IMG/VR virus record: IMGVR_UViG_3300015207_000448
Length of the DNA stretch: 64,000 bases
DNA from: a virus
Taxonomy: Duplodnaviria > Heunggongvirae > Uroviricota > Caudoviricetes
Strand: one strand, 5' to 3'
In this document: positions 4,269-63,896 of the stretch, piece by piece
Position numbering within the stretch: position 1 is the first letter of the stretch
Layout: each line of letters opens with the position of its first letter
The notes under the pieces: model-generated
Told to the model about the DNA's origin: nothing
Seen by the model: only the letters and a program-made list of their open reading frames with translations
Databases searched by the model: none
Made by a program: the position numbers and the translations under genes

Positions 4269-4363
4269 TATTACATTTTCAGTTTGGAGTTTGATAAGCC
4301 TCGTGACCTAAAAGGTTGCGAGGCTTCTTTTACTCATTCACTGAAGTTCAAAAACATAAGATA

Positions 4364-5227
4364 ATGAATGATTTGTTGATTGAAACCAGAGAAATTGGTA
4401 ATCATCGCATAAAGATATACTACGACACTAACAACACCTGTCCGGTCAAGGATTGGGATATGGGAGGTTGTTATGTTTTTGAGCATCTTGAAAACGGTCG
4501 TTACTGGCTATCATCAGACTGTGATTGGAAAGAATACAGTGGTGGTTACAGCCTCAGAGATAATTCTATGTCTGACATACTTCAGCGAATGGCTGCTGAT
4601 GTGGTAGAACAGAAAGACATCATAGCCCACTACAAAGCCGGGAAGATGAAAGACGTGAGATTCATCTATAATCGCCACACCCGTATGTGGGAACTCCAGC
4701 ACTACCTCCGATGGAAAGGCGCCAACGCTAACTGGGAAACGCAGTTGGAAATAGAACCCTATGAATTAAAAGCCGATGCCGACTATCGCATGGAATTGCT
4801 TGAAGGTCTTGAAGAGGAAGATATGTTGGCCATTATTCAAAAATACGCCAAAGATTTCGTCATCAAAGAATGGTCTTCGTCTGGCTATTCGCAAGGAGAC
4901 CACATGAGGGGTATCGCCTATATGTCCAAAGAACATTTCGACAAAACATGTGGCTTTAGTCATGGCCATTATAAAGACTGGAAGGAGCAGGCTCTACATG
5001 TAATCGACGGTGAAGTCAGATGCATCGAAATGTGGGCTTGGGGCGATGTCAAAGGCTATGTTCTGGAAAAGAAAGTACCGTTCACAAAAGTCTATGCCGA
5101 CGAAGATCGTGAAGACGAGGAAGACATTGAGTGGGAAGAGGTCGATTCTTGCTGGGGCTTCTATATGGAAACCGAGGAACTGATTGCCGAGGTAATTGCT
5201 GAACATGACCTGAAAGAAGTTGCATAG
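4364..5227 (+). CDS. Hypothetical acidic protein
   Basis: ORF 4316..5227, probable start MNDLLIETR; acidic C-terminus (EDEEDIEWEE). Confidence 0.45.
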   Translation: MNDLLIETREIGNHRIKIYYDTNNTCPVKDWDMGGCYVFEHLENGRYWLSSDCDWKEYSGGYSLRDNSMSDILQRMAADVVEQKDIIAHYKAGKMKDVRFIYNRHTRMWELQHYLRWKGANANWETQLEIEPYELKADADYRMELLEGLEEEDMLAIIQKYAKDFVIKEWSSSGYSQGDHMRGIAYMSKEHFDKTCGFSHGHYKDWKEQALHVIDGEVRCIEMWAWGDVKGYVLEKKVPFTKVYADEDREDEEDIEWEEVDSCWGFYMETEELIAEVIAEHDLKEVA

Positions 5228-5266
5228 CATAATTATCTATGAATGAACGCAGGCCGAATTAATCAA

Positions 5267-5330
5267 TGTTAAAGTGTACAAGTTTTCACCCCATACTCAC
5301 ACTACAATCTCTATTCGTAAACAAACAACA
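5267..5330 (+). promoter_or_regulatory. Conserved promoter/leader motif, copy 1 (tgttaaagtgtacaaNttttcacNcc ... ctattcgtaaacaaacaac)
   Basis: Near-identical 26-mer and a CTATTCG-TAA-CAAC element recur at 11843-11905; the CTATTC part recurs in reverse complement near 59650-59690, upstream of target 3. Confidence 0.4.
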
Positions 5331-5339
5331 AACTGAAAG

Positions 5340-5618
5340 ATGAATACAGAAATTCAAACAACGAAGTTGGATGGCACTATCTCATACATGATTGATAAGG
5401 CATCAGCCTTATCGTCCAACTTGGAAGTGCTGAAAATGGCTCTTCCAAAAGAAACACAAAACTTAATGGTTGGACGGGCAAATCCCATAACCATTAGAGG
5501 TATTCTTGACAACCAGACCGCTTGTCTTGATGAACTCAACTCTCTCATTACGGAACTAAGAACTGAACTTAAATGCCTTACCACGTCATCCTCTCAGATT
5601 CAGACGGCGAATCAGTAG
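5340..5618 (+). CDS. Small hypothetical protein, first gene of the target-1 operon
   Basis: ORF immediately downstream of the conserved motif. Confidence 0.3.
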   Translation: MNTEIQTTKLDGTISYMIDKASALSSNLEVLKMALPKETQNLMVGRANPITIRGILDNQTACLDELNSLITELRTELKCLTTSSSQIQTANQ

Positions 5619-6031
5619 TCGGAATCTGTGGCACCCTTGAAGCTGCTAAAGAGCATCTTCGTAGTGTTCGATATTACCCCTCTTATATGAGAAGCGTCGA
5701 GAGTTTGGATATTTCCGATGACGAAATGTCTGGTACCGGCTATGATGAGAGTGGGCATTTCACATACTCAATCAAAACAGCATAACATGAATGAGCGCCA
5801 ATACTTTGTGATTATGCCCAACGGACATCTCTTGTTCGTGGAAATCACCCCAGAACGTAAAAGCGTGATTGACGATGAATTTTCCGGAGACGAAGAAGAA
5901 TACCTCTATACGGTTCTATCTGAAGAATTTGACTTTTCAGTCAACGATGTTGACTGGTCAATTGTGCCGGATTCATGTATCACTTGCTTCGGCAGAAACC
6001 CTTCGATAACAAAACTATAAACATTATAACA

Positions 6032-6829
6032 ATGGAATTGAAAAACGAACTTAAAAAGTTTATCGTTGACCGTACCACCCGGTACAACGTAATGGCTAAG
6101 AGCCAGGAAGCCGCTGAACTTGCTGCGGCAGGAGGAGTGATTTTCGGCAATCTGTCTGCGGATGCCGACCAGTTCTCAGTTTACCCTGAGGGAACAGAGG
6201 GTCAAGACGGCCTCAATCTCACGTCCAAGGACAATTCAACGCTTGACAACATCAAAGCTGAGGTCAAGCGTACCGGTGAAACACAAATTCTCATTGCGAT
6301 AGTTGGTGGAGGCTTTCTCACGAGAGACGAATATGCACACGCCAATGGAACGGACTTTAAGGATGCCGTCATCGGTATCGCTGTCATCACTCCGCTTATT
6401 TCTTTCATCGTGGGGCTCACTGAATGGAAGGAGCGCTGGAGTGAAGATGACGAGCATGTCGTGACTGAATCTCACACCGAAGCTCAAGCCTTCCAGGTTG
6501 TTTCCGGTCTGGAGCATACCCGTCAACTTGTCGATTGGCAAGAAGATGAAGGCAATACTGCCGCAAAAATGTGCTGGAACTACAAGCATAAAGGGCTTCA
6601 GTGGTATCTCCCGTGCCTGCTGGAGCTCAATGCCATCTGTGCAAACAAAGAAGAAATCAATGTGCTTCTGAAACTCGTCGGCGGTACGCCGCTCAGTTTG
6701 GATGAATGTTATTGGTCGTCCACTGAGCACTCGGCTGGCTACTCGTGGTTCGTCTACTTTGGCAGTGGTCTTAGCTACTACGGCAGCAAGTGCGGCACTA
6801 ACGTGGTTCGCCCTGCTGTTGCCATATAA
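6032..6829 (+). CDS. DGR-type target protein 1 with a DUF1566/C-type-lectin-like C-terminal domain
   Basis: C-terminus ECYWSSTEHSAGYSWFVYFGSGLSYYGSKCGTNVVRPAVAI is a DUF1566 signature (W-LP ... YWSST ... VR-V); paralogue of 11922..12590 with identity concentrated at the 3' end. Confidence 0.7.
   Translation: MELKNELKKFIVDRTTRYNVMAKSQEAAELAAAGGVIFGNLSADADQFSVYPEGTEGQDGLNLTSKDNSTLDNIKAEVKRTGETQILIAIVGGGFLTRDEYAHANGTDFKDAVIGIAVITPLISFIVGLTEWKERWSEDDEHVVTESHTEAQAFQVVSGLEHTRQLVDWQEDEGNTAAKMCWNYKHKGLQWYLPCLLELNAICANKEEINVLLKLVGGTPLSLDECYWSSTEHSAGYSWFVYFGSGLSYYGSKCGTNVVRPAVAI
6710..6826 (+). repeat. Variable region VR1, 117 nt
   Basis: Nucleotide-identical to 12471..12587 except at 7 codons, where only positions 1 and 2 differ and position 3 is fixed (cac/ggc, ttc/cgc, ctt/ggt, tac/ggc x2, ggc/tac, aac/tac). 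This pattern indicates adenine-specific mutagenesis of AAC codons. Confidence 0.6.
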
Positions 6830-6850
6830 GCTCAATCTTTAATCTTCACT

Positions 6851-6875
6851 GCCGGGCCAGTTTCTCTGGCCCGGC
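6851..6875 (+). promoter_or_regulatory. GC-rich hairpin 21 nt downstream of the VR1 stop (gccgggccag-tttctc-tggcccggc)
   Basis: Perfect 9-10 bp stem with no U-tract; identical copy after VR2; resembles the hairpin needed for DGR target recognition. Confidence 0.5.
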
Positions 6876-6894
6876 TATAAATCAAATCTCGATT

Positions 6895-7101
6895 ATGAAT
6901 AAATACCTGATATATACTGGACAGGGTTGGACAGAAGACCCCAATGGGGAGCGTGTTGAAAATTGCCAAATTCTTGGCAGAGCCGAAGGTGAAAATGAGG
7001 ATGATGCTCTTGATAGTTTCCTCAAAAATAACCCTTGGGTGGAAGAAAGTGGGTTTGATGAGTTTGATTTGGCCCAGCTTCACGACACAGAATGGGTATG
7101 A
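6895..7101 (+). CDS. Small acidic protein
   Basis: ORF track. Confidence 0.3.
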   Translation: MNKYLIYTGQGWTEDPNGERVENCQILGRAEGENEDDALDSFLKNNPWVEESGFDEFDLAQLHDTEWV

Positions 7102-7276
7102 AACAGAGATATACCGTCAACGTCCATTATGATGCAGTTGTCACAGTGGACGTAATTGCTAACTCGGAAGAGGAAGCTGTCCAAAAAGCACTATACAAAG
7201 CTGAGGACATTTCGCTCGAAGATGCTGAGGTATTCGACATCAACTGCTGTGTGACAAATATAGAAGATTTATACCC

Positions 7277-7852
7277 ATGAGAATCTACGAAGAAAAAGCG
7301 CTCAAAGATTTCGATTTTTGGAGCGGTGGCGCAGATAGAGCAGCCAACTTAACTGATGAAGAGTTTGACTCAGTGGAGCGATTGTTTGAGGAACTATATC
7401 CGGACGGTATGAGTGATACCGAAATCAACGACTTTTTCTGGTTCGATTTCGACACAATCGCGCAGCATCTTGGCTACGAGGACGAGGAAGATTTCGACCG
7501 GAAGCACGACCCCAACTACATTGAAGATGATGACCTTGAAGAGTATATTGAGGAGTATTGGAGAGAATATCTCGATACAATCTTTGAAGAACAAGGTGAA
7601 GATGGTCTTAGATTCATCGTGACTGACTTGTTCGGGGACGATCCGGAAGAAGTTTTAGTGGACTACAAAGAAGAGGCATTTGACGAATCACCCAGAGGTA
7701 TCTTCTATCATTATCTCAATGTTCGCTACGATAGCAGCGAACTTATGGAAACGCTCTTTGACAACGATCAGGGTTGGGATGTGCTCGACAATTTTCCCAC
7801 AAAAGAAGAGTTCCGCGACGAGATGATGGATAAAAAGAAAACATCAAAATAA
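7277..7852 (+). CDS. Highly acidic hypothetical protein; paralogue of 62669..63274 (minus strand)
   Basis: Shared FWSGG-DRA-N-T-EE and WFDFDTIAQHLGYEDEEDFDR-HDPNY blocks; D/E-rich. Confidence 0.5.
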   Translation: MRIYEEKALKDFDFWSGGADRAANLTDEEFDSVERLFEELYPDGMSDTEINDFFWFDFDTIAQHLGYEDEEDFDRKHDPNYIEDDDLEEYIEEYWREYLDTIFEEQGEDGLRFIVTDLFGDDPEEVLVDYKEEAFDESPRGIFYHYLNVRYDSSELMETLFDNDQGWDVLDNFPTKEEFRDEMMDKKKTSK

Positions 7853-7859
7853 TACGACT

Positions 7860-8501
7860 ATGTTAATGACATTTAATGAATATGTCATCGACTGGTGGAA
7901 AGACTATCTTTCCTTTATCGATGAGAGTACTGCCAAACGAATCATGGAAAACGAGTTCATTGGCGAAGAAGAAACTGTAGAAGATTACATCCCTGAAGAT
8001 GCTGAAAGCGTGATTGACTGGCTTGACAAACAGGACGACGATGGTGAGAAAATTTACAAGATTTTCTTCGGCCCTGAAGCTACCGATTGCGTGTACGACA
8101 ATGTCCCCGATACTGATACGTTCCTCACAGATATGTTTATGCACTGTGCTGGTTGGTACAACAATCCAGACAGCGAATCAAAGCCCAGCTTTGCTGAAAG
8201 TTTTGTAGCAGATATGGCCTATCACGCTGAAGATTACGAAACTCCGCTCGGCTTTTTTCAAGACCTGACCCACGGATGTCAATCCGGTATGATTGGTATG
8301 CTCATCTACAACTCCGACTGCAAGGAAATCTACATCAAGCATATTGACGATATGGAAGAGTGGAAGTTAGAGGAAGAGGAAAGCCTCGGAGAATCAATTC
8401 GTAACAAAAATCATATTCCACACTATACTTGGATGTGCTGGCTGTGTTACGAAGAACTTGGTTTCCAGATAGCTCGAATATTATTCCCTGATACATTTTG
8501 A
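7860..8501 (+). CDS. Acidic hypothetical protein
   Basis: ORF track; D/E-rich. Confidence 0.4.
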   Translation: MLMTFNEYVIDWWKDYLSFIDESTAKRIMENEFIGEEETVEDYIPEDAESVIDWLDKQDDDGEKIYKIFFGPEATDCVYDNVPDTDTFLTDMFMHCAGWYNNPDSESKPSFAESFVADMAYHAEDYETPLGFFQDLTHGCQSGMIGMLIYNSDCKEIYIKHIDDMEEWKLEEEESLGESIRNKNHIPHYTWMCWLCYEELGFQIARILFPDTF

Positions 8502-8504
8502 TCG

Positions 8505-8879
8505 ATGGAACTACAAGAATGTATTGACCTAATCACTCAATGTGCTGAAAACAATGGGTGGGGAGTCTATGCCACTCCTGATGACAGAGATGGTAGTGTT
8601 TGCTTTGAATTTAACACATCCACGCCTTGCGGACAAGACTTTTGGATTACCTGCTATTTGGCAGACAACGACCCTCATACTCTTGTTCAAAATGTCTATG
8701 ATTACTGGCAAAGTTATGATCCTGACTATGAAGCAACTTTTTGGATTGGCGATGACGGCCATGGAAAGAATGGTGCTCCATATCATATCATAGATATAGT
8801 TCGTGACATGGAGGCCGCTGAAAAGCGAATAGCAGAACTTTATGATGCCCTCAGTGAATTAGATTTCGATGAGGATTAG
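8505..8879 (+). CDS. Acidic hypothetical protein; homologous to the middle part of 50416..51345 (minus strand)
   Basis: Shared Y-SYDP--EA--WIGDDGHG-NGAP motif. Confidence 0.45.
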   Translation: MELQECIDLITQCAENNGWGVYATPDDRDGSVCFEFNTSTPCGQDFWITCYLADNDPHTLVQNVYDYWQSYDPDYEATFWIGDDGHGKNGAPYHIIDIVRDMEAAEKRIAELYDALSELDFDED

Positions 8880-8900
8880 TCAACAAATAAACTCCAAACA

Positions 8901-9767
8901 ATGAAAACAGAACTTGAAGCGCTTGGCTTTACCGGATTTTACCAAGGAATATGGGACCAAGGTGAAAACGAATATGGCGCCATGCAGATGCTGAAGTATG
9001 GCGATTATGACGACATTGAAACCCTTGAGTTTATCGAATATTGGGGTTTCGGAGAGGATTACCGTGAGAAGGTGATGAAGGAGTATGCAGAACGTTACGT
9101 TGAATTTGTGAATGATGTGCTTGGAACTGATTTCGCATTGACATCTCAATCGTTGTGGTCTCCGAAAGAATATAATTTCCAGACGGACAAAGTATTTTGC
9201 GATGTCGAAATTGAGGATTTTGATGGACTCGTGGACAGGCTTGTCAAAATGGTTTCAACAGACCTCGATCTCTACAATGTTATGCGCAAGACCATCCACG
9301 ATAATCACACCAGTTGCAGCGGTTTCATTTCGTTTATGGATAACGATATTGATGAATGGTTTGGCCTCATTCAAGACCCTGAGAACACAACCTATTTCTC
9401 ATATTTCATCGCTTATTTGGTTAATGCCATCCAGCCTGGTTCTCTGCGTCAACTCAACGAAGACATCTATGGGTACGTATCAGAAAACACAGATTGGCAT
9501 TTACCAGTGCCTGAGACCGACGAGGCAAAAGAAGAGTACCAGTTATACTCTGAACATCGTGACACCTACACTGAGTTTCTTAAAGAGTACCGGAAGAACC
9601 ATGTGGATCCTACAAGACAAGATTGGCCGGAGGATGATCGCCGCCGCTACGATGTGGATTGGGACGAGTTCAAGGAAGCCTTCTCGGAACACCTTGAATT
9701 TCTTGAGGCAGAAAGAAAACGCCTCGAATATCTGAGAAATCAACCTGTAATACCCGGATTAGAATGA
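8901..9767 (+). CDS. Acidic hypothetical protein; paralogue of 61492..62199 (minus strand)
   Basis: Shared blocks FTGFY, PKEYNF--D-V, WF--I-DP-NT, TDEAKEE, LRNQP-IPGL. Confidence 0.5.
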   Translation: MKTELEALGFTGFYQGIWDQGENEYGAMQMLKYGDYDDIETLEFIEYWGFGEDYREKVMKEYAERYVEFVNDVLGTDFALTSQSLWSPKEYNFQTDKVFCDVEIEDFDGLVDRLVKMVSTDLDLYNVMRKTIHDNHTSCSGFISFMDNDIDEWFGLIQDPENTTYFSYFIAYLVNAIQPGSLRQLNEDIYGYVSENTDWHLPVPETDEAKEEYQLYSEHRDTYTEFLKEYRKNHVDPTRQDWPEDDRRRYDVDWDEFKEAFSEHLEFLEAERKRLEYLRNQPVIPGLE

Positions 9768-10069
9768 AACTGATATTTCCTCTCCCAAATGGAGAGCAGC
9801 TTGACCTTTTTGACGAGGGGCCAAACGGAATGGATTACATCTGTACTGTTAGCGGCGAATACAAAACCGGAGTGATTGGTCTTGTGGAAGAATACGAGCG
9901 AGAAAAGAATCCGCAGCGTCGCCTCAAAATCGATGATGAGATTCACGACCAAGCTTACTACTATGTCGATTCGATAGCCATGTGTGATGAAGAGCTTCAG
10001 TCAATGATAAGTTTAACTGATCTGGCTGAACAAATCTATCGTGCTATCATAACATTTGCCAGAATATGA
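9764..10069 (+). CDS. Hypothetical protein
   Basis: ORF track. Confidence 0.3.
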   Translation: MKLIFPLPNGEQLDLFDEGPNGMDYICTVSGEYKTGVIGLVEEYEREKNPQRRLKIDDEIHDQAYYYVDSIAMCDEELQSMISLTDLAEQIYRAIITFARI

Positions 10070-10632
10070 CGGAGAAAAGAAAACTCGCCGACTGTTTTGA
10101 AAACGGTTGGTTCAAAGCGGAATACCTTTGGGAACTTCGCCAAGAGATTGTTCTTGGTAGTCTGTATTACGCTGACTATCGCAACTCATTTGGAATTGAT
10201 GAACACAAAGTGCGTGACTTTTTCACAAGTTTTTGGGATAGCTTCTGTGAGGAGCTTGCCAAGGAAGACAATCTGTGGGAAGAAGCTTGTATTATCACCC
10301 GTGACCATTTTGAAGGCGACACGAATGTAAGTCCTGGCAAATACGATTTGTTTCGCGAAGAGACGTATCAAGAATTATTTCAGAAACGCTACGATAACGA
10401 AGATACACTCAAAAATTGGTATGGCTGTTTCTGTGATGATTGTCCACTTCCTCCCAAGATGGTTAATGTGGACATTTACTGGCAATTTCACCGTTCAATT
10501 CATGTTATTGCTGGGACCGAAGATGAAGCGGAAGAAATCGTGAATGAAATGATGAGAAACCGCGAGATTCCGACAGAATCGTTTGAACCGGATGACGATT
10601 GGGATCTCGACACAACCTATCAACCTGATTGA
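10066..10632 (+). CDS. Acidic hypothetical protein
   Basis: ORF track. Confidence 0.4.
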   Translation: MTEKRKLADCFENGWFKAEYLWELRQEIVLGSLYYADYRNSFGIDEHKVRDFFTSFWDSFCEELAKEDNLWEEACIITRDHFEGDTNVSPGKYDLFREETYQELFQKRYDNEDTLKNWYGCFCDDCPLPPKMVNVDIYWQFHRSIHVIAGTEDEAEEIVNEMMRNREIPTESFEPDDDWDLDTTYQPD

Positions 10633-10984
10633 CATGGACAAAAACTTACAAACAAGATACTGCACCGAATGTGGTTCATCTGACGTCAGTTCAATGGCTT
10701 GGGTAAACAATGCCACCGGAGAAATTGAAGAATACATCGGATATGACAGAGACCCCGAATATAATTTTTGCCATCACTGTAATTGCTCGGTAGCAATTAT
10801 GACTCTCGAAACTATGTGGAAACACTTCAGTGAAATACCCATAGATTCTGAGGATTGCATCGAAACTGATTTTCTCTTTTTTGAGAAAGATACCGACCGA
10901 AATCATATCTGGCACTGGTTCGATGAAAGATGCCCGAATGGTCTTGCAATAGATCTGATGGGCGAGCAACCTAAACAACAATAA
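10583..10984 (+). CDS. Cys-rich hypothetical protein; its C-terminus is paralogous to 60902..61495 (minus strand)
   Basis: Shared C-terminal IWHWFD--CPNGLA-DLMGE; CTEC ... CHHCNC cysteine pairs. Confidence 0.45.
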   Translation: MNRMTIGISTQPINLIDMDKNLQTRYCTECGSSDVSSMAWVNNATGEIEEYIGYDRDPEYNFCHHCNCSVAIMTLETMWKHFSEIPIDSEDCIETDFLFFEKDTDRNHIWHWFDERCPNGLAIDLMGEQPKQQ

Positions 10985-10985
10985 T

Positions 10986-11579
10986 ATGAAATGTACATAT
11001 TTTCACTCTAAATACAAGGAGCTGGAGGCACAAGAGTACCGAGAGCTTGCTGCTGCGGTCAAAGCGCATGGCGGCGAATATGTCTTCTTTGATTGTAATC
11101 AAGAAGATGCTGATGATAAATGGCGCGAAGCTGATGGCCATGATGACATTCCAGTCATCAATGGTTGTCATCAGTGTATGGACAAAGACGATAGCTTCTA
11201 TGTAACTCGTGTCTCACTCGATGAGTATGGAAATCCTCAAATATTTGGATTCCGAGATGAATACGGATGCCCTTCAGATGAGGATAGGCTGTATAACATT
11301 CAATTTGGCTATCTCGACAACATCATCACGGAAATTCCTGAGACCGAGGAAGTACATGATGTACGAGAACTGCCCAAGCTAAATTCGATGCCGGTGCTGG
11401 TTCTCAGTCGAGAAGACCTCGAAGTGAAGGGTTACGACCCTGAAATGACTGACGATGAGTTTTTCACACTTGGAAATTCCGTAGCCAAACATCTTGATAT
11501 GGATGACTTTTGGCTGGCACTGGAGTATGCTTGTGATTACTTAGGTGTAAAACGATTAAACGAAGCAGACGATGAATAA
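10986..11579 (+). CDS. Acidic hypothetical protein; paralogue of 59733..60116 (minus strand)
   Basis: Shared AAVKAHGGEYVF / AAIKAHGNEYVF and IPETEEVHDV / IPETDEVQDV. Confidence 0.5.
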   Translation: MKCTYFHSKYKELEAQEYRELAAAVKAHGGEYVFFDCNQEDADDKWREADGHDDIPVINGCHQCMDKDDSFYVTRVSLDEYGNPQIFGFRDEYGCPSDEDRLYNIQFGYLDNIITEIPETEEVHDVRELPKLNSMPVLVLSREDLEVKGYDPEMTDDEFFTLGNSVAKHLDMDDFWLALEYACDYLGVKRLNEADDE

Positions 11580-11847
11580 AGATTTTAATCGCTGGGAGTT
11601 CATTGAAAAGTGGCTTCCAAACTATTCATCCGATCAAGATGTGGCATGGTCAAACGACTTGTCAAAATATCTTGCCGGAGAATACGACTATCAAGACCCG
11701 TATGACAGAGACCGTATCAATGCAATAGCAGAAGTTTGTGCTACTGCTGAAGACGCCAAAATTGAGCTCGAAAGGGTTGACTGCGGATTGTTTTTGGAAG
11801 CACTGGAAGCATACCAAAGACAGAAAGAGAAAATTAACGAGTGTTAA
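11572..11847 (+). CDS. Small acidic protein
   Basis: ORF track. Confidence 0.3.
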   Translation: MNKDFNRWEFIEKWLPNYSSDQDVAWSNDLSKYLAGEYDYQDPYDRDRINAIAEVCATAEDAKIELERVDCGLFLEALEAYQRQKEKINEC

Positions 11848-11905
11848 AGTGTACAACTTTTCACACCTCTAATACAAAACAAATCTATTCGATAATAAAC
11901 AACCA
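11843..11905 (+). promoter_or_regulatory. Conserved promoter/leader motif, copy 2
   Basis: tgttaaagtgtacaacttttcacacc ... ctattcgataataaacaacc about 20 nt upstream of the target-2 start. Confidence 0.4.
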
Positions 11906-11921
11906 ATTAAATCAAAGACAA

Positions 11922-12590
11922 ATGTCACAGTTAAATGTACTTCAGGAGCTGAGGGCTTCACTTGCCTTCGCCAACCGCTTTGACATCGCCAAAGCAAAAG
12001 ATGCCTACGATTTTATCATAGGCGAAAACGAGGAACAGCCTACCCTAAATGTGAACGTAGCGCCGCTTTCAGATGGAATCTACTATGTTATCAACGACAA
12101 AACGCTCGTTCCGGTAGCTCACCTTGAAACCGTCAACAAAGCAAGAGTTATCGGCGTCGCAGTTAAGATGTCCGACAAGATTGCGACTGTTGCTCTTCAC
12201 GATGCAGCTGATGGAGAAGAAGTCGCGCTTACCACAACAGAGAATAACGGCTCGTCAGAGTTTTTCCGTCCCGACTTTTGGGATGCGATGTCTGACTGGA
12301 ATGGCGAGGCCAACACCAAGGATTACGGCGACGACCTCAATCCGGCAATCAACCTTCAGCCTGGACAGTACATCCCGTCGCTCGCTCAGCTTCATCTGAT
12401 TCTCCTTAACATCAAGGAGGTCAATGCTGCTCTTGAAGCAGTGGGCGGCACACCGCTTCGCAAAGAGTGGTATTGGTCGTCCACTGAGGGCTCGGCTGGC
12501 TACTCGTGGCGCGTCTACTTTGGCAGTGGTGGTAGCGGCGGCGGCAGCAAGTGCTACACTTACGTGGTTCGCCCTGCTGTTGCGATATAA
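11922..12590 (+). CDS. DGR-type target protein 2 with a DUF1566/C-type-lectin-like C-terminus
   Basis: ORF 11841..12590 (GTG start) with probable Met start MSQLNVLQEL; C-terminus EWYWSSTEGSAGYSWRVYFGSGGSGGGSKCYTYVVRPAVAI. Confidence 0.7.
   Translation: MSQLNVLQELRASLAFANRFDIAKAKDAYDFIIGENEEQPTLNVNVAPLSDGIYYVINDKTLVPVAHLETVNKARVIGVAVKMSDKIATVALHDAADGEEVALTTTENNGSSEFFRPDFWDAMSDWNGEANTKDYGDDLNPAINLQPGQYIPSLAQLHLILLNIKEVNAALEAVGGTPLRKEWYWSSTEGSAGYSWRVYFGSGGSGGGSKCYTYVVRPAVAI
12471..12587 (+). repeat. Variable region VR2, 117 nt
   Basis: See VR1; the region from the VR through the downstream hairpin (about 12458-12651) is about 90% identical to 6697-6890, whereas the upstream coding sequence has diverged synonymously. 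Confidence 0.6.
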
Positions 12591-12611
12591 GCCTTACTCT
12601 TCATTCTTTCT

Positions 12612-12636: not shown

Positions 12637-12659
12637 TATAAATCAAAATCTGAGATTAG

Positions 12660-56075: not shown

Positions 56076-56077
56076 AG

Positions 56078-56395
56078 CTATGAGAATAAAGGCTTTTCGC
56101 CGTTATAGTTTTGGATAATCCATTCCAGCAAGAGCTTGCGATTCTTATCGTCAAGGTCTGCATAGAACTTGACCATATAGGTGTCAGGATCCTGAGTTCT
56201 GGTAGCGTGTTGCCACTTTCCCAGCATGTGACTGATATGACAAGTCCATTTCACTTCTTTGAGAAATTCCGGCACATTTACCGTATCTGCACCACCACCG
56301 GGAAAGGTGACAGTCATTGGAACTACCTTGTAATTCCAGCCATGAAACAGCCATTTATTGATGGCTATCATAGCGATTTTAAGATTTTCAGTCAT
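56078..56395 (-). CDS. Hypothetical protein
   Basis: ORF track. Confidence 0.3.
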   Translation of the reverse strand: MTENLKIAMIAINKWLFHGWNYKVVPMTVTFPGGGADTVNVPEFLKEVKWTCHISHMLGKWQHATRTQDPDTYMVKFYADLDDKNRKLLLEWIIQNYNGEKPLFS

Positions 56396-56400
56396 AGCTG

Positions 56401-57696
56401 TTATGCGATTTTTGATATAATTTTTGAAGTATTAGACTTAATCAATGATACTATTCTGTCAAAGTGTTCTGGAACCTGGTTGTATTTGCCACGGCATTGG
56501 AGGACCGAGAAGTCCTCTAAAGAAAATTCTATAGTTGCGATTGACACACCATTAACCAGGGCATGAAAAATAAGCACATTGTCGTCAGAATAATACCTAT
56601 TAGTGAAGACACAGTGGTGCATATATTCACCCTCTTCTACAAATTCTTTTACCGACTGAAGAGGTTTGACCACAATTTCCTTATCGACAAATTCCAGATC
56701 TAAAAATATTGATTTGGCTTTCTTATATCGAGCTTCATCAACTTTGTGATTAACCTCATAGCGTTGTAAAGGTGTCATTTGTCTCTCGCGCTCTCTTCGT
56801 CTATCTGCTTCATCCATCTTAGCTCGCTTTTTAGCAATCCATAAATCATGAGCCTCTTTAAGATTGTCAGGACAGATGAATTTTGGATTTCTCAAATCTT
56901 TCCCACAGTATTCAAGAGCGTCGAGCATATCATACCAAGTTGAAGCATCGGTAATCTTATAATTGTGCCGGAAAGCGACCTTAGCGGAGGGCCAATATTT
57001 CTCAAACTCATACTTTTTAGCCAATGAGAAAGCTACCATTTTGTATTGCCTTAATTTCCATGCCGTCTCAGTTTTATTGCAAGTGAGTAAGCGTTGGAAC
57101 AAAGTATATGGGGAACAGTTATGAAAATCACCGTTATATCCGTTTCTTCGGATTTCTGGAATCACTGAAGATTGCCCGATAACTTTGTAAGGCGTGACAT
57201 AGTGGCCATAGTTTTCTGTTCGGATTTCCATTTCGCTGTCATAGTTCCATATATCGCAATAACTGCACATCCAATGTCGAGCACGACCAACTATCACTTC
57301 TTTGGCATCTGGAGTAAGCCAGCGTTGAAAAGCCTCACTAATCCAGTATGTAGCCTTCTCGCCTCTTCTCAGATTTGTCTGCATAAAGAACATTCTAACA
57401 ACCTGACAACCTCCACGCTTGGTTACGATTGCGAAATAAGCTCTATCACAAAAATTCCACTTGCGAGTTTTGTCAACATCCAGCTTTGCGGAGCAGTGAG
57501 GACATACAACCTTAGTAGCCTCATCACCTTTCCAAGAGTGACCACAATCCAGACACACATATTCTTTCTTAGAATTGTACTTGGCAATATGCGGAGCCAC
57601 TTTCCTGACAGCTTCCTTATATTGATGTTCGTTCAAAGGAGAGAGTGTTTTGGATAACTCCAAAATTTTTCTTTGAAATTTGTTTCTGGGTTTCAT
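56401..57696 (-). CDS. PcfJ-like protein
   Basis: N-terminal zinc ribbon CLDCG ... CPHC and the C-terminal MHHCV motif that I recall for the PcfJ family. Confidence 0.5.
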   Translation of the reverse strand: MKPRNKFQRKILELSKTLSPLNEHQYKEAVRKVAPHIAKYNSKKEYVCLDCGHSWKGDEATKVVCPHCSAKLDVDKTRKWNFCDRAYFAIVTKRGGCQVVRMFFMQTNLRRGEKATYWISEAFQRWLTPDAKEVIVGRARHWMCSYCDIWNYDSEMEIRTENYGHYVTPYKVIGQSSVIPEIRRNGYNGDFHNCSPYTLFQRLLTCNKTETAWKLRQYKMVAFSLAKKYEFEKYWPSAKVAFRHNYKITDASTWYDMLDALEYCGKDLRNPKFICPDNLKEAHDLWIAKKRAKMDEADRRRERERQMTPLQRYEVNHKVDEARYKKAKSIFLDLEFVDKEIVVKPLQSVKEFVEEGEYMHHCVFTNRYYSDDNVLIFHALVNGVSIATIEFSLEDFSVLQCRGKYNQVPEHFDRIVSLIKSNTSKIISKIA

Positions 57697-57717
57697 ATTG
57701 TGAAAGAGCTGAAAGGA

Positions 57718-58122
57718 TTAGAAAATCGGAATATCCAGCGGCTCCGGGATATTGGGGTCAACAGCAGCTTTGGGCTTTCTTGGTTTGCGCTGCTTAGGCT
57801 TTTCTTCTGAAGTGATCTGCTCAGGGGAGGCTGGGGGTTCTGGAGAAGGACTCTGTACGGCTTCCACTTTATTCTTGGGGCCTTCTACTACGATGTCATC
57901 TTCATCATAGTAGTGGACTGCCAGTCCAAATACCTCATCGTCGGAAACACCGACACAACGCTCACCCTTGGGCTTGTTCTTTTCGACTTGCTGGAAGATG
58001 TACTTGCAACACTCTTTGATATTTTTGTTGGGTTTTGCGTATGTTGTTGCGAACTGAGCATCATCTTCAGCGCGCTTGTCAAGATAGTTCTTGATAGCAG
58101 TTTCAAAAGTGGTAAATTCCAT
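57718..58122 (-). CDS. PcfK-like protein, tentative
   Basis: Small acidic protein with a Pro/Lys-rich tail adjacent to the PcfJ-like gene; the assignment rests on the typical pairing. Confidence 0.35.
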   Translation of the reverse strand: MEFTTFETAIKNYLDKRAEDDAQFATTYAKPNKNIKECCKYIFQQVEKNKPKGERCVGVSDDEVFGLAVHYYDEDDIVVEGPKNKVEAVQSPSPEPPASPEQITSEEKPKQRKPRKPKAAVDPNIPEPLDIPIF

Positions 58123-58134
58123 ATTGAAAGATTT

Positions 58135-58659
58135 TTAGGAGTTAAAGAAAAAGAATGTATATCTTGTGTTTACATTCTCCTTTGGGGGAGAAGTCAACTG
58201 TCTGATTGCGAATTTGAAGGTGTTAGCTTTGAAAGTATGCTCAAAGCCATTCATAGGTTCGTGATGAGTGTACCGTATTTCAACTTTGGCATCATCAATT
58301 ACTTTATTGAGGATTACCGGGTTGGTATGCCATTTGCCTTTATGTTTCCAGCAATATAAGGTTACATCATCAGTCTGGAGGGATTTGAAGTCATCTATTT
58401 TGACTAATCCATATTCACTCATAAGCTCATCTAACAGACCTAATAAATAGTCTGGTAATGGGTCAGTTGAGTCTTTTTTCTTGCCATTATAAAGAGATTC
58501 AAACGTAAGTAGAAATGCCTGTTTTATCTCTATCGAGTCAATGCACTTACTTAATTTGTACTTACAGAATTTAATGATTTGAGGTTCTATTTCTTTGACG
58601 GCCTCATTATTCTTTGCTCGTAATAACTGACGAACATGATCAAGATTGGGGCGTTCCAT
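58135..58659 (-). CDS. Hypothetical protein
   Basis: ORF track. Confidence 0.35.
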   Translation of the reverse strand: MERPNLDHVRQLLRAKNNEAVKEIEPQIIKFCKYKLSKCIDSIEIKQAFLLTFESLYNGKKKDSTDPLPDYLLGLLDELMSEYGLVKIDDFKSLQTDDVTLYCWKHKGKWHTNPVILNKVIDDAKVEIRYTHHEPMNGFEHTFKANTFKFAIRQLTSPPKENVNTRYTFFFFNS

Positions 58660-58664
58660 AGAAG

Positions 58665-58745
58665 TAAAAGTTAAACCCCTTTATCCCTAACTCGCTACGC
58701 TCGTGTCGCTACGCTCCAAGGGTTAAAGGGATAAAGGGGTTAAGG
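58665..58745 (-). promoter_or_regulatory. Large hairpin immediately 3' of the VR3 stop: a 15-bp stem (aacccctttatccct / agggataaaggggtt) and a 38-nt loop containing a gagcgtagcga direct repeat
   Basis: Read directly from the sequence; could be the DGR target hairpin or a terminator. Confidence 0.4.
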
Positions 58746-58746
58746 G

Positions 58747-59460
58747 TTAATGAAATGCTGCCACAGCGCGGACGTAGAGGCTGCTCGTGGCCTTAGTGCC
58801 CCAGCCGTTGAGGCTGCCGCCGTACAGGGACAAGCCCCAAGCGTACGTCGCCGAGCCCTCAGTGCTGGTCCAATACCAGCCATCCTTAATGCGGCTACCG
58901 CCGCTAAGTTCGATGGCGGCATTGATTGAACGCTTGTTGAGATAGATGAGATAGAGTTCAGCAACTGAAGGGATCCACTCGTCATCCTCCAGCTCTATGC
59001 CGGTGCCGATAGACTTGATATGCTCAGTGTTTGACTGGCCGTTCCAATCAGCAACAGCATCATCATATTCAGTGATGTAACCGTCATAACCGCCGGGGTC
59101 TTTCTGGTTGGTAAGGGGCTGTTCCGGATAATCCTCCAGATTGACTGCGAGAGCATGGCGACCCATCACTACGCCGATACGCTTTACCGTCTTTGTCGGA
59201 GCATTGCGCTTCTTGTAGTCGAACTTTTCAACTGTGTTATCCTCGTAGATGTAGTACACTCCATCATTCAGAATGGCTTGATGAGAGCCTTCAGTCTGCT
59301 GAATGTCGATTTTGATTTGCTCAACCTCCTTTATCGGAGATTTGATGAAGTCATACACAGCCTGTGCTTCTTCACCGAAGTCACTGAAGAGAGCAAGTTT
59401 CAGCTTCTCATCCATCGGAAGAGAAGCGTAGATGGTTTTTGCGATTTCGTCTGAGATCAT
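58747..59460 (-). CDS. DGR-type target protein 3 with a DUF1566/C-type-lectin-like C-terminus
   Basis: EWIPSVAELYLIYLNK ... DGWYWTSTEGSATYAWGLSLYGGSLNGWGTKATSSLYVRAVAAFH. Confidence 0.7.
   Translation of the reverse strand: MISDEIAKTIYASLPMDEKLKLALFSDFGEEAQAVYDFIKSPIKEVEQIKIDIQQTEGSHQAILNDGVYYIYEDNTVEKFDYKKRNAPTKTVKRIGVVMGRHALAVNLEDYPEQPLTNQKDPGGYDGYITEYDDAVADWNGQSNTEHIKSIGTGIELEDDEWIPSVAELYLIYLNKRSINAAIELSGGSRIKDGWYWTSTEGSATYAWGLSLYGGSLNGWGTKATSSLYVRAVAAFH
58750..58875 (-). repeat. Candidate variable region VR3
   Basis: GC-rich (about 62%) C-terminal segment homologous to VR1 and VR2 at the protein level; boundaries inferred. Confidence 0.45.
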
Positions 59461-59732
59461 ATTTTTATATTTTTGATGATGTGTTACTTACCTTTGCTGA
59501 GGCAGACGGCCAGCTTGTCAAGGTCGTTGGTGCCAAAGTGATTTTTCAATTCCTCTAAGACAGAGGGCTTCTGGTTTTTTAGCAACTGCTTGATAGTAGC
59601 AGGATTGCCACCTCGATATAATTCAAGGCAGTTCGTAGCTTGTGGTGTCATACGTTTTTGGTTGTTATGTTTTTATGGGAATAGTCTCATTGTAGAAGAA
59701 AATTAGAATGAGAACGAGATTTTTAAGAGTTT

Positions 59733-60116
59733 TTAAGGAATAGTCACATCCTGCACCTCATCAGTTTCCGGGATAAGGTCGATGACATATTCCAACTGAC
59801 CGTGTGCTATGCTGGTCAGTTCCTGCTCATCATCTGCCCACCCCTCCTTGGGGAAGCCATAAATGACCAGACAACCAAATTCTTCAATGGCAACGCGAGA
59901 GATATAAAAATCCTCATAAGTATCCATCCATTTGGTAGAAGCGGCGATGATAGGGGCATTGTTCTTTTCCTCTGAGATTTTCTCGTCATCTCCATCATCT
60001 TCATCGGTGTGAATAAACACATATTCATTACCGTGAGCCTTAATTGCTGCTTTAAGCTCTTCACGAGTACAATCGTCAAGATGCTTGTATTGATTGTAAA
60101 AATCGGTATGTCTCAT
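59733..60116 (-). CDS. Acidic hypothetical protein; paralogue of 10986..11579
   Basis: See 10986..11579. Confidence 0.45.
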   Translation of the reverse strand: MRHTDFYNQYKHLDDCTREELKAAIKAHGNEYVFIHTDEDDGDDEKISEEKNNAPIIAASTKWMDTYEDFYISRVAIEEFGCLVIYGFPKEGWADDEQELTSIAHGQLEYVIDLIPETDEVQDVTIP

Positions 60117-60640
60117 TTTTGAAAATCTTTAACTGTAAGTCGTTTGAATTTTGTATCGGCCGGCACGATATGCCAGTGAAGTCTGTTCTGACTATATCCA
60201 CAGTACACGAAAAGGAAATGCTCAATCAGTTCATCTTCCTCATCAGGGATTTCATAGAAGTAGTCGTATTCTTCGTTGTCAATCAACCATTGGGGTAACT
60301 GACAGTGAAGCCACTCTCTCTTCACTTTAATGATTGCGACAACCGGAGTATCAGTATCACAATCAATGATTGCAATGTGGATTTCTTCGTTCATTCGTTT
60401 TTGGAAGGCTTCTCCCCATTCTCCCAGCACCCTTTGATTGACTGGAAGCTGAACCGGGAAGTCGGGATGATATTCGAGGTCAACGGTTTCTTGGAAAGCC
60501 TGACCAATCGCTTCAGCTGTAGGATTACCTGCCTTTCTTTCGCGCTCATAACACTTTTTGAAGTATTTATCAAAAGTGTGACGCCAGGCTATATCAGATT
60601 GAGGGGGTATTGCCATATCACCAACAATTATTTGAAACAA
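60113..60640 (-). CDS. Hypothetical protein
   Basis: ORF track. Confidence 0.35.
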   Translation of the reverse strand: MFQIIVGDMAIPPQSDIAWRHTFDKYFKKCYERERKAGNPTAEAIGQAFQETVDLEYHPDFPVQLPVNQRVLGEWGEAFQKRMNEEIHIAIIDCDTDTPVVAIIKVKREWLHCQLPQWLIDNEEYDYFYEIPDEEDELIEHFLFVYCGYSQNRLHWHIVPADTKFKRLTVKDFQK

Positions 60641-60899
60641 AATCAGCTATTTCACTCGCCTCTCCATATTCCAGCTCATCAGGAATGTAGAAGAAAATCT
60701 CTTCATCAACGGCGGCTGCTTCAGCATTAAGTGGATTGCCTGAAGAGTCTATCAACAATCCTTCAAGGGACTCAACCGATACAGAAACCTCAATGGTTTT
60801 CATATTTTGTGCCGAATCCTCATCGCTTTGGTCAACGATATAGATGTCAAACACTGGATAGTGTTCGCCATTATATTCTATGTATCTATCGGGTATCAT
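60618..60899 (-). CDS. Small acidic protein
   Basis: ORF track. Confidence 0.3.
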   Translation of the reverse strand: MIPDRYIEYNGEHYPVFDIYIVDQSDEDSAQNMKTIEVSVSVESLEGLLIDSSGNPLNAEAAAVDEEIFFYIPDELEYGEASEIADFVSNNCW

Positions 60900-60901
60900 A
60901 A

Positions 60902-61495
60902 TTAAAAGGGTAAAGACTTAGAAGTTTCGCCCATCAGGTCAACTGCAAGACCATTTGGGCAGAGTTTATCAAACCAGTGCCAGATGTCAAAGCGGGATGT
61001 TCCAGCTTCCCAGAAATAGAAAGGGGTTTCAATCTCATCTTCATCATTGATTGGAGTATTAGCGAATTTGCTCCACATCTCCTGAAGTTCCCATAAGTAA
61101 GCGTCCTTTTCAATGCGAGCTTTTATTCTTGCTAATATGTAAGGACTTCTTGGGGCATCTGGATCGAAGAAGCAACCCTCTTCAGAAAAAGTGGGAAGGC
61201 GTTGATTGTCTTTTGCCTCATAATATCTCGTCAACCACCAAGGCTCCATACCAAAAAGGGATTCTTGATATTCTAAGACCACCATAAACTGACGGATTGG
61301 GCAATCGTCATCTTCCATTCGGTAGTAATGCCCATTTGGTCCATCACAATCTCTGCTATAATGACCAGGAACTTTGCAATCAGCAATCCATTCTCCCCAA
61401 TCATTTTGGCGAACCGCAATCACCTTGCCACCCCAAGGAAAGTAACTCAGGGTGTTATTAAACTGCTGTTCCACCAGTTCTTTCGTTATTATCAT
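60902..61495 (-). CDS. Hypothetical protein; its C-terminus is paralogous to 10583..10984
   Basis: FDIWHWFDKLCPNGLAVDLMGE. Confidence 0.45.
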   Translation of the reverse strand: MIITKELVEQQFNNTLSYFPWGGKVIAVRQNDWGEWIADCKVPGHYSRDCDGPNGHYYRMEDDDCPIRQFMVVLEYQESLFGMEPWWLTRYYEAKDNQRLPTFSEEGCFFDPDAPRSPYILARIKARIEKDAYLWELQEMWSKFANTPINDEDEIETPFYFWEAGTSRFDIWHWFDKLCPNGLAVDLMGETSKSLPF

Positions 61496-62199
61496 AATCC
61501 AGGAATTGTTGGCTGGTTGCGCAAAGCCTCCAGACGTTCTTGTTCTTTGAAATAAGCATCAAGCTCTTCTTTAGCCTCATCTGTGGTGGGAACAAGTGTC
61601 ATTGTATCTCTGCTGCAACTCAGTTCTTCATAAATTTGGTCAGCCATACCCCAATCACCATCGCCGGAGATTGACTCCTGAGTTTTGAGGCAATAGAGAT
61701 ACCAAAGAACACACTCCAGATAATTGGTGTTATCTGGGTCGATAATGGCACCGAACCAATCTTCTATATCGTTGCTCATCCAGCTCCAGAAACCGGGGCG
61801 ATCAGAATGATTTTCTTTGATGATTTTTGCAAGTTCAACACGAATGTCAAGCTCGCTCATCAGAGAGATAATCTTTCGAGTGTACTCATCCCAGTCACCA
61901 ACCTCTACATAGCAGATTACTTGGTCGTTTGTGAAATTATATTCTCTGGGAGATTCTACGGACTCTTTGGTAAGCTCCATTTTGAGTCCGAGCTTGTCAT
62001 TCAGTTCACTTACATACATTTCAGCGAACTCTTTTGCAACCTCAGAACGATAATCTTCAGGCAACTCCCAATCTGAGAGATGCTTGAAGTCGGGATATTG
62101 CTCTTCCAGTCTTTCCCGACCGTCATACTCGACATATTCTTCCCCGAACATACTGCCGTAAAATCCGGGAAAGCTCTTAACAGCTATTGAAGTTTGCAT
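61492..62199 (-). CDS. Acidic hypothetical protein; paralogue of 8901..9767
   Basis: See 8901..9767. Confidence 0.5.
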   Translation of the reverse strand: MQTSIAVKSFPGFYGSMFGEEYVEYDGRERLEEQYPDFKHLSDWELPEDYRSEVAKEFAEMYVSELNDKLGLKMELTKESVESPREYNFTNDQVICYVEVGDWDEYTRKIISLMSELDIRVELAKIIKENHSDRPGFWSWMSNDIEDWFGAIIDPDNTNYLECVLWYLYCLKTQESISGDGDWGMADQIYEELSCSRDTMTLVPTTDEAKEELDAYFKEQERLEALRNQPTIPGL

Positions 62200-62210
62200 A
62201 GTGATATGGA

Positions 62211-62672
62211 TTATTTCTTTTCTCCCAGCTCACGCTTTGCGATTTCATTGGTGGTGTACCAATCCACGTAGCTCCAGCCGGTTCCGAAATGTGTGACACA
62301 GAGGATATAGCAATCAAGGAGGTCACTGTAAGTAAAAATCAGACCAAAAGCATTGGTGAGATATTCCACATCAAATTTGGAGCAATCAGTTATGTACCAC
62401 TGATAGATTTCCACCGGCTCATCGCAATATCCACATTCAGGACATTCCATATTGGGACCATACTGCGATAGCTCTGCACCACATTCAGGACACTTGGGTT
62501 TTATTTCCTCGCCCTCTTCATCATATTCTGGCTCATACTCCAGATTTACAATAGGTTCAAAGTTATCCCATATTGAATCATCAATGTTAGGGATATTGTT
62601 GCAGAGAACCAGTGCATTGTTGCACCAGCTCACCGCAACCGCGAAGTTGGTATGATATAATTCCTTTTTCAT
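62211..62672 (-). CDS. Hypothetical protein with zinc-ribbon pairs
   Basis: CPECGAEL ... CPECGYC. Confidence 0.35.
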   Translation of the reverse strand: MKKELYHTNFAVAVSWCNNALVLCNNIPNIDDSIWDNFEPIVNLEYEPEYDEEGEEIKPKCPECGAELSQYGPNMECPECGYCDEPVEIYQWYITDCSKFDVEYLTNAFGLIFTYSDLLDCYILCVTHFGTGWSYVDWYTTNEIAKRELGEKK

Positions 62673-63274
62673 TGTTCTTCAGATTTTTTGTGAACTCTCA
62701 TCATTTCATCACGGAACTGTTCTTTGGTCGGGAAATCTGTGAGATTTTCGTGACCGTTATCATCTTCAAAAAGAGCTTCCATAAGGTCGGATGCACCATA
62801 CTCTTTCAGAAGATGATCGTATATTCGCTCACCTATCCAGTCAGGATAATCAGGAGCGTTTTGAGCTTCTTCCTCTTCCGCTTCAGTTGAGGCGAAATCA
62901 AGATAATCGCCACCAAAGCAATTCTCATAGAGATAGACGATAGCATCAGTGCCTTCTCGTTCTTTGACAGTCTGGAGGAATGAGGCAAACCACTCTTCAA
63001 CATATTCTTCCAAATCATCATCATCGAGATAATTGGGGTCGTGCTGGCGGTCAAAATCCTCTTCATCTTCGTAGCCGAGATGTTGGGCGATTGTATCGAA
63101 ATCGAACCAGAACATATCGTTGATAGCGGTGTCAGTCCACCCGTCAGCCGGCTCAATTTCTTCGAGAAATTCCTCTATGCGGTCAAGTTCATCAGCAGTG
63201 CAATTATCAGCTCTGTCCTTACCTCCGCTCCAAAATTTGAAGTTCCGGAGACTTTCTTCAACTGTATATTTCAT
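62669..63274 (-). CDS. Highly acidic hypothetical protein; paralogue of 7277..7852
   Basis: See 7277..7852. Confidence 0.5.
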   Translation of the reverse strand: MKYTVEESLRNFKFWSGGKDRADNCTADELDRIEEFLEEIEPADGWTDTAINDMFWFDFDTIAQHLGYEDEEDFDRQHDPNYLDDDDLEEYVEEWFASFLQTVKEREGTDAIVYLYENCFGGDYLDFASTEAEEEEAQNAPDYPDWIGERIYDHLLKEYGASDLMEALFEDDNGHENLTDFPTKEQFRDEMMRVHKKSEEQ

Positions 63275-63279
63275 TATAT

Positions 63280-63561
63280 TTAGGGGATATTTGATAAATT
63301 ATCTCTTTCATAATCCTCTGGCTCACCGTCATTAATGGACCGATAAAAATGATCTCCCTCGATATAACTCATCAATGTCATATAGACATAAAACCAATCC
63401 TCTACGGTCAGAGAATCAATATTTGGAATATCTTTGGCAATCAGTGCCCCCAAAAGATCCCCAATACAAACATCATCGTTATGATAGATATGATAAATAT
63501 ATTCTACCACTTTCTGAGCTTCTTTAGAAAGCGTTTGATATAATTTATTATTACTAATCAT
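63280..63561 (-). CDS. Hypothetical protein
   Basis: ORF track. Confidence 0.3.
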   Translation of the reverse strand: MISNNKLYQTLSKEAQKVVEYIYHIYHNDDVCIGDLLGALIAKDIPNIDSLTVEDWFYVYMTLMSYIEGDHFYRSINDGEPEDYERDNLSNIP

Positions 63562-63566
63562 AGATT

Positions 63567-63896
63567 TTATTTTAATTGGTGGTTATTATGCCAATCTATT
63601 TCAGTTTCAGTAGCTTCTCGATAAAGCATAAAACACCCGCCCAAATTTGAATTATATAAGAGAGTGTAAATGCCATTCTTATCAGCATAAGACGTGTCGC
63701 CTATCTTGCCAATCATCGGCTCTTCTTCAGAAAGCTCATTTTCTTCATCATCCCAATCACTGAGATAGTCAATGACTGGTTGAGAATTACCTTCGCAATA
63801 GTATAGGCTAATACCTGAGAACACAGCCTCAATGCGATTATAGTCATCATCTGCGCTTTGCACAAATCTGACAATGGAATATATTTTGTTTTTCAT
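63567..63896 (-). CDS. Acidic hypothetical protein
   Basis: ORF track. Confidence 0.3.
   Translation of the reverse strand: MKNKIYSIVRFVQSADDDYNRIEAVFSGISLYYCEGNSQPVIDYLSDWDDEENELSEEEPMIGKIGDTSYADKNGIYTLLYNSNLGGCFMLYREATETEIDWHNNHQLK

Follow-up and report, generated by a model that had tools for sequence, protein, structure and literature searches.

The mirror-symmetric arms of a 64-kb phage record as the probable junction of two BS-TP1-like prophages in one tRNA-Phe gene

The closest cultured phage and the window

Bacteroides phage BS-TP1 is a cultured temperate phage from Bacteroides salyersiae (Liu et al. 2025, Gut Microbes, PMC12694917), for which BLAST gave no homologue among NCBI bacterial chromosomes at ≥85% coverage and 95% identity (PMC12694917). 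In the annotation of its genome (PQ571274.1, 111,694 bp), a single plus-strand arm at about 66-100.6 kb converges on a minus-strand integrase, beyond which lies a long minus-strand block with TerL, lysis genes, DNA polymerase III alpha, and replication and tail genes. The subject of this study is IMG/VR record IMGVR_UViG_3300015207_000448, a stretch of 64,000 nucleotides (the window) in which a plus-strand left arm and a minus-strand right arm carry homologous genes in mirror order. We consider that the window is very probably the internal junction of a tandem double lysogen, in which two related, distinct phages occupy the same tRNA-Phe(GAA) gene. When each arm was compared with the GenBank phages by megablast, no match was found; the search at the protein level identified BS-TP1 as the one cultured relative. 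Related contigs and loci are referred to by L numbers.

Thirty-five left-arm genes and 15 right-arm genes were placed by tblastn, in order, onto BS-TP1 67.4-100.6 kb. The BS-TP1 arm follows the same order as those of the window, with genes for DUF1566/Lcl_C, a UG27-type reverse transcriptase (RT), a 368-aa protein, DUF2829/Tad2-like, RtcB, ParA, radical SAM, cytidylyltransferase, helix-turn-helix (HTH) and RNase H proteins. Homology extends to the TerL and integrase genes that lie off the window in relatives of the two phages, called here left type and right type. The TerL of BS-TP1 is 89.6% identical to that of the left type (L234) and 50.5% to that of the right type. Its integrase is 60% identical to the left-type enzyme (L234) and 29% identical over the full length (E 4e-42) to int420, the right-type integrase; the left-type enzyme of L234 and int420 are 29% identical to each other.

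The junction and the two prophages

The two sides of the window meet at a 14-nt attachment (att) core, CCTGGTGGCACCAC, at 34625-34638 on the plus strand, which is the 3′ end of the host tRNA-Phe(GAA) gene. Left-type contigs match the window as far as 34638-34640, beyond which they diverge into one or another of several terminator-like host flanks. In right-type contigs the match begins at 34625/6, and on the other side of the core they have tRNA-Phe and host genes. The overlap common to both sides of the junction is only 14-16 nt. An intact tRNA-Phe(GAA) gene precedes the core and an integrase in six loci (L013-L017 and L029). Since what the two sides share is the end of this tRNA gene, the 14 nt serve as the att core, and tandem prophages in a tRNA attachment site (attB) are expected to meet at just such a short core that matches a tRNA 3′ end. 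Just 5′ of the core, the non-coding segment at 34301-34624 (plus strand) is the attP-derived arm of the left-type phage and is kept in all left-type contigs. Each element was found alone, bounded by the same core, with a tyrosine recombinase beside its att site, that of the left type lying outside the window. The host flanks downstream also agree: the left-type attR loci L025 and L026 belong to the same flank family as the right-type attR, the flank of L026 being nearly identical to that of the right-type L054, which indicates that both phages use the same attB.

The right-type prophage is represented by its first 29.4 kb, integrase and arm, at 34639-64000 (minus strand), and continues past the right end of the window. 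This part is for the most part 99.3-99.99% identical to L013-L020 and L002-L006 (95-99% in a few segments of L013 and L020) and 92% identical to L001. The only tyrosine integrase gene in the window, int420 (420 aa; Pfam Phage_integrase and Phage_int_SAM_5), is located at 34849-36111 on the plus strand. It adjoins right-arm genes in all eight neighbourhoods shown (23 contigs read), namely a 116/126-aa gene, an 86-aa gene, the Tad2-like gene and the gene for the HU-type DNA-binding protein (37236-37511, minus strand; Pfam Bac_DNA_binding, E 8e-33), which is near the integrase in L013-L019. On the far side of int420 there are host genes, another integrative element or phage genes of the TerL side. 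Because int420 is always beside right-arm genes, the integrase and HU genes belong to the right prophage; they are its first genes, and the separate central integrase/HU region proposed earlier does not exist as a neutral centre. The right type is represented in all three att forms: attL as tRNA, core and int420 (L013-L017); attR as TerL, a 401-aa gene, core and the host flank CCCAAG..AAATCGCTAATTC (L047, L048, L050, L052-L055); and attP, joining the two prophage ends, as TerL side, core and int420 side (L020, L051). Its length is estimated at about 107 kb from the position of the attL core, at about 107,554 in a 167-kb contig, and from two other contigs in which the same right-arm gene lies about 79-80 kb from the start.

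The left-type prophage occupies 1-34624 (plus strand) with its last 34.6 kb, the accessory/early arm of a BS-TP1-like temperate phage, and extends past the left end of the window. This part is 95-99.8% identical to L007-L012, L021-L028 and L092, and those contigs have no right arm. By exact look-up, the left-arm protein 7277 is indexed in 117 collection blocks and the right-arm protein 62669 in 1797, with no overlap between the contigs shown for the two. Exact-pattern scans of the JGI metagenomes and IMG/VR for the left-arm end gave no match. The other end of the left type was recovered on IMG/VR contig 3300045988_132205 (119,342 bp), which has a copy of the left-arm 368-aa gene at 97% identity. 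At one end of this contig (L092), which is 98.6-99.5% identical to the window, the left arm finishes at the att position and 4.8 kb of host flank come after it; at the other end (L234), an integrase of the BS-TP1 type precedes gp122-like and TerL genes, both reversed. With both ends seen on one contig, the left-type prophage measures about 114.5 kb. The list of TerL homologues had failed to single out the left-type TerL, which was found by scanning IMG/VR with the integrase alignment. Left-type attL is present in L233 (98% identical to L234) as tRNA-Phe, core, 261 nt and integrase, and attR in L021, L024-L028 and L092. The attP form is seen in relatives only (L230-L232), as forward arm, core and forward integrase followed by reversed gp122 and TerL genes. 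The first-pass annotation had considered two related elements joined head-to-head as one of two readings and had asked for single-arm versions in related contigs. Such versions exist for each arm in many independent assemblies, and the place where the elements join is an att core from the 3′ end of tRNA-Phe.

After site-specific integration, each of the two hybrid att sites again contains a usable core, and a second element can thus insert beside the first; integrase-bearing elements stacked at a single tRNA attB are a familiar part of phage biology. In the pathway that we propose, two temperate BS-TP1 relatives of about 107-115 kb would each integrate at the 3′ end of tRNA-Phe(GAA) by tyrosine-integrase recombination, the second entering the hybrid att site of the first prophage; either order of entry would yield the same product. 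The array would then read tRNA-Phe, core, forward left-type integrase, reversed TerL/replication/tail block, forward left arm, core (34625-34638), forward int420, reversed right arm, forward replication/TerL block, core and host flank. The window would be the middle 64 kb of this array, with the outer ends deduced from the single prophages, and the arms would be orthologous accessory regions, one per phage genome. Their facing orientation has an explanation in the integrase-attP cassette. When the arm is read from left to right, the order in BS-TP1 and in the right type is forward arm, reversed integrase, reversed attP and reversed TerL block, and that in the left type is forward arm, forward attP, forward integrase and reversed TerL block. 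The tRNA gene sets the direction of the core and the cassette is inverted in the left type; the genomes therefore insert in opposite orientations and the arms face each other. The mirror symmetry is a product of ordinary double lysogeny with this one explainable peculiarity of orientation, and no genome duplication is involved. The host is probably a Muribaculaceae bacterium of the mouse gut, as the source of L029 is Muribaculaceae bacterium Isolate-104 and one TerL homologue is also source-labelled Muribaculaceae, which makes this the likely host family.

Several results weigh against a tandem double lysogen. An exact search for the 43-nt junction of left-arm end, core and int420 side found it in neither the JGI metagenome contigs nor IMG/VR, and the junction was absent from the shown neighbourhoods of the integrase and of the left-arm end (8 each; 23 and 24 contigs read), so that to date no second source has this arrangement. 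The predicted outer sites of the array, attL with tRNA-Phe and attR with host flank, would lie about 80 kb past the window ends, and the junction is known from assembled sequence. One alternative is an assembly chimera, in which two single lysogens or free phage populations of one sample were misjoined at the att core. We consider such a misjoining unlikely. It is favoured by the many left-type contigs that stop 60-260 bp past the core (L024-L028), where assemblers evidently break, by the recovery of the junction from no other dataset, and by JGI sample 3300029297, which contains both a near-identical left-type contig (L010) and a right-type-like attR contig (L054, TerL 95% identical). However, assemblers normally use k-mers longer than 14-16 nt, and because the two sides share no more than this, the mirror arrangement is likely not an artefact of assembly. 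Moreover, the junction is the exact hybrid of attR and attL type expected as the product of sequential integration, and equivalent tandem junctions at the same core are present in independent assemblies (L018, L019, L022, L023 and 11 places like the last two).

A recombination between the attP sites of two circular phage genomes, giving an extrachromosomal co-integrate with no chromosomal array, would produce the same junction sequence, and there is no host DNA in the window to speak for a chromosome. Even so, this origin is very improbable: a molecule of about 220 kb would presumably exceed the packaging size of phages of about 110 kb, and for each phage, single prophages integrated at tRNA-Phe are on record.

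Mirror pairs, gene content and other elements at the site

All window open reading frames (ORFs) of at least 50 aa were compared by all-against-all blastp. The 17 pairs listed in the first-pass annotation, which had counted at least 16 in inverted collinear order, were all recovered as homologous together with a few extra ones (E 1e-7 to 0). The left member was always on the plus strand and the right member always on the minus strand. Named by their window coordinates, the pairs of the outer part of the arms are 7277/62669 (49% amino-acid identity, E 2e-59), 8901/61492 (33%), 10583/60902 (57%), 10986/59733 (40%), 11841/58747 (32%), the reverse transcriptases 13183/54554 (74%, E 0), 15806/53245 (60%), 16278/52182 (46%, E 4e-108) and 17372/50416 (48%, over 64 aa only). 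Nearer the core are 23060/38846 (57%), the DUF2829/Tad2-like pair 25457/36775 (24%), 27028/50226 (69%), 27207/49966 (34%), 28955/47666 (34%), 29206/46492 (25%), 30145/45589 (34%) and the RNase H pair 30741/44471 (64%); the pairs 8505/50416, 25959/41471, 32886/43821 and 5975/58747 were not in the original list. Left and right coordinates are negatively correlated (Spearman rho -0.81, p 3e-5, 19 pairs), and rho is exactly -1.0 for the 16 pairs of two collinear blocks that remain once a displaced block is removed. The first of these blocks, with nine pairs in strictly inverted order, joins 7277-18157 (plus) to 50416-63274 (minus), and the second, with seven, joins 27028-33422 (plus) to 43821-50459 (minus). 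The displaced block, 23060-26354 (plus), has its homologues at 36775-41806 (minus), the att-proximal end of the right arm, and includes the first of the two Tad2-like (DUF2829, Pfam) genes, 25457-25966; the second is at 36775-37224.

The anti-diagonal of pairs is therefore genuine and far above chance. The inverted order claimed for it holds exactly in the two blocks and fails in the displaced one, and the typical identity of 40-60% was slightly generous, since values range from 24 to 74% with medians of about 42% (19 pairs) and 46% (17 listed pairs). Nucleotide alignment between the arms is confined to 2.5 kb of the 34.6 kb on the left, with 68-85% identity. Transcription converges as described, with genes on the plus strand up to about 36.1 kb and on the minus strand from 36.15 kb onward, and GC and AT skew both flip sign at about 36 kb; the centre of symmetry, which had been placed in the 34-37-kb integrase/HU region, is the 14-nt core. 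Homology to other contigs reaches both ends of the window, so both arms continue beyond it.

Of 12 genes in common, about 10 are no less similar between the left arm and BS-TP1 than between the two arms. The values for BS-TP1 and the right arm are 87% and 64% for the left-arm RNase H, 59% and 25% for gene 29206, and 59% and 32% for gene 11841. The other reading of the first-pass annotation, an ancient inverted segmental duplication inside one element followed by divergence, is the least credible of all, for although at least 19 paralogous pairs lie on the anti-diagonal, single-arm contigs are the rule and by themselves refute it, the boundary is a tRNA-derived att core, BS-TP1 and its relatives of about 109-119 kb are one-armed, and the left arm is no closer to its supposed duplicate than to BS-TP1 in most shared genes.

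The paired reverse transcriptases are located at 13183-14442 (plus) and 54554-55828 (minus). Both are of the UG27 class by PADLOC (RT_UG27; E 8e-229, full-length, for the left one and E 1e-230 for the right one, which is 74% identical to it). They had been labelled earlier as enzymes of diversity-generating retroelements (DGRs), a label that does not hold: no template copy is present in the window, and the SQ-type DGR motif is absent from the translation of the left RT. UG27 enzymes are common in gut viruses of Bacteroidetes, where gene clusters and a predicted non-coding RNA (ncRNA) are associated with them (Mestre et al. 2022, NAR, PMC9226505), and their role is uncharted and probably not in defence (PMC9226505). 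The neighbouring pairs 15806/53245 (152-153 aa) and 16278/52182 (362-368 aa) and the gaps beside the RT genes may be candidates for the UG27-associated clusters and ncRNA of Mestre et al. 2022. In L009 (17360-18688, corresponding to about window position 14449), an insertion sequence with a DUF772-type transposase is located directly after the left-type UG27 RT and replaces or breaks the downstream arm.

Variable regions of a DGR are nevertheless present at the 3′ ends of three Lcl_C/DUF1566 genes. They are located at 6712-6801 (plus; gene 5975-6829), at 12473-12562 (plus; gene 11841-12590) and, approximately, at 58750-58900 (minus; gene 58747-59460), the last seen as a cluster of mismatches against L002 and L006. 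Mismatches against contigs that are otherwise about 99% identical are clustered in these regions, fall on paired codon positions and occupy the same positions in the two left ones, a sequence pattern by which we identify them as true variable regions. Neither the window nor the loci retrieved from around the arms contained a template repeat. In BS-TP1, the variable region of the arm, 78411-78522, is 90% identical to 27399-27510, about 50 kb away, beside an RT gp25/Avd cassette that also serves the 2187-aa giant tail protein gp27. By analogy with this distant template-like copy, the arm Lcl_C/DUF1566 genes are probably targeted at a distance by a DGR in the structural block beyond the window.

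The functions found in the arms by Pfam, PHROGs and PADLOC scans are Lcl_C/DUF1566, one RT per arm, radical SAM, RtcB, cytidylyltransferase, ParA, Tad2-like/DUF2829, HTH regulators and RNase H, with HU and PcfJ/PcfK in the right arm only. The PcfJ-like and PcfK-like genes are at 56401-58122 (minus), between the RT and Lcl_C genes. These families were first named from conjugative plasmids, and the same scans of the window revealed neither capsid nor portal nor terminase genes; the arms were accordingly considered as non-phage integrative elements of about 35 kb. This possibility was rejected because the attP contig L020 and BS-TP1 place the structural genes outside the window. Six phage tRNA genes (Leu-CAA, Ala-UGC, Met-CAU, Cys-GCA, Asn-GUU and Gln-UUG) were identified by ARAGORN at 31479-33504 (plus). 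The cluster belongs to the left-type phage only, and the same six genes are present in L021 and L022.

The search for TerL homologues gave 755 at E ≤ 1e-50; prophage-sized IMG/VR contigs of relatives measure 98-140 kb. Many of the TerL homologues have about 890 aa, compared with 527 aa, and contain LAGLIDADG/Hom_end domains (PF05204, PF14528), a sign that these terminases carry inteins. Weak intein/HNH matches are also present in the DNA polymerase III alpha of L020. In L214 (1-4348), from a 98-kb IMG/VR relative, integrase, TerL and gp122 all lie on one strand, a third arrangement of these genes, and the integrase region seems prone to rearrangement in the BS-TP1-like family.

Other elements use the same tRNA gene. 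A 384-aa integrase located after the left arm in L022 and L023 was considered as the left-type integrase and rejected: it is distant from int420 (25% over 188 aa), it stands at the start of 17-50-kb IMG/VR contigs that we take for a smaller prophage, with a giant DGR target beside it, and contig 3300045988_132205 carries a BS-TP1-type integrase instead. It belongs to a third phage on the same tRNA-Phe core. Tandem junctions of the left type followed by this phage were found in 13 of the 24 contigs read (L022, L023 and 11 similar places). In the third phage (L022 7557-16181, L023, L032-L043), a 159-aa gene, a 477-aa RT and a 2282-aa CotH-like giant gene adjoin the integrase. In the tandem junctions of L018 and L019, another integrative element precedes the right type. 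It occupies positions 1-9800, between the tRNA side and the right-type prophage, has a 481-490-aa integrase, Fic/RhuM, DUF3987 and HTH_17, and ends in CTGGTGGCACCAC. By exact search, at least 120 IMG/VR contigs carry the tRNA-Phe, and at least four element types use the site; the arrangement in L018 and L019 indicates that tRNA-Phe gathers arrays of unrelated elements. In L029 (6212-6478; Muribaculaceae Isolate-104), the 143 nt after the core are 99% like the P′ arm of the right type in the window and the sequence then diverges, a pattern suggesting that the attP arm has undergone mosaic exchange among different phages.

Comparison with known systems

The main value of these results is corrective, as the 60-kb symmetry should be reported neither as a palindromic genome nor as an ancient duplication, and prophage callers should split the region at 34625-34638. 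The attB (the tRNA-Phe 3′ end), the att forms and the extents of about 107-115 kb are now defined for two uncultured relatives of BS-TP1 from Muribaculaceae, and tRNA-Phe emerges as a crowded integration site in Bacteroidales. Related prophages with a common attP organisation would be expected to stack head-to-tail; here the two genomes are in opposite orientation, because the cassettes are oppositely oriented in syntenic genomes. There is a small chance that this opposite orientation lets both phages share the tRNA-Phe site stably. If it does, the roughly 2.5 kb of shared homology would form inverted rather than direct repeats, so that recombination would invert DNA and swap modules and delete no prophage, and the array would be a heritable 'twin prophage' of about 220 kb doubling as a platform for module exchange.

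The likeness to the UG27 systems of gut phages is that of one gene pair, both RTs matching the profile end to end, and does not extend to the mirror arrangement. The likeness to BS-TP1 covers the whole arm, and the Muribaculaceae and gut-metagenome relatives extend the BS-TP1 group modestly. BS-TP1 differs in its host, Bacteroides salyersiae, and in having a single arm per genome, and the CTGGTGGCACCA core is absent from it, including its integrase-proximal gap. Gene content is mosaic in comparison: the six tRNA genes and the gene at 14449-15435 are found in the left type only, and PcfJ/PcfK and HU in the right type only. The left type differs further from BS-TP1 in its inverted integrase-attP cassette, which can thus take either orientation in the BS-TP1-like group. 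The convergent orientation produced by this inversion is a small twist on known prophage integration and not a new kind of system.

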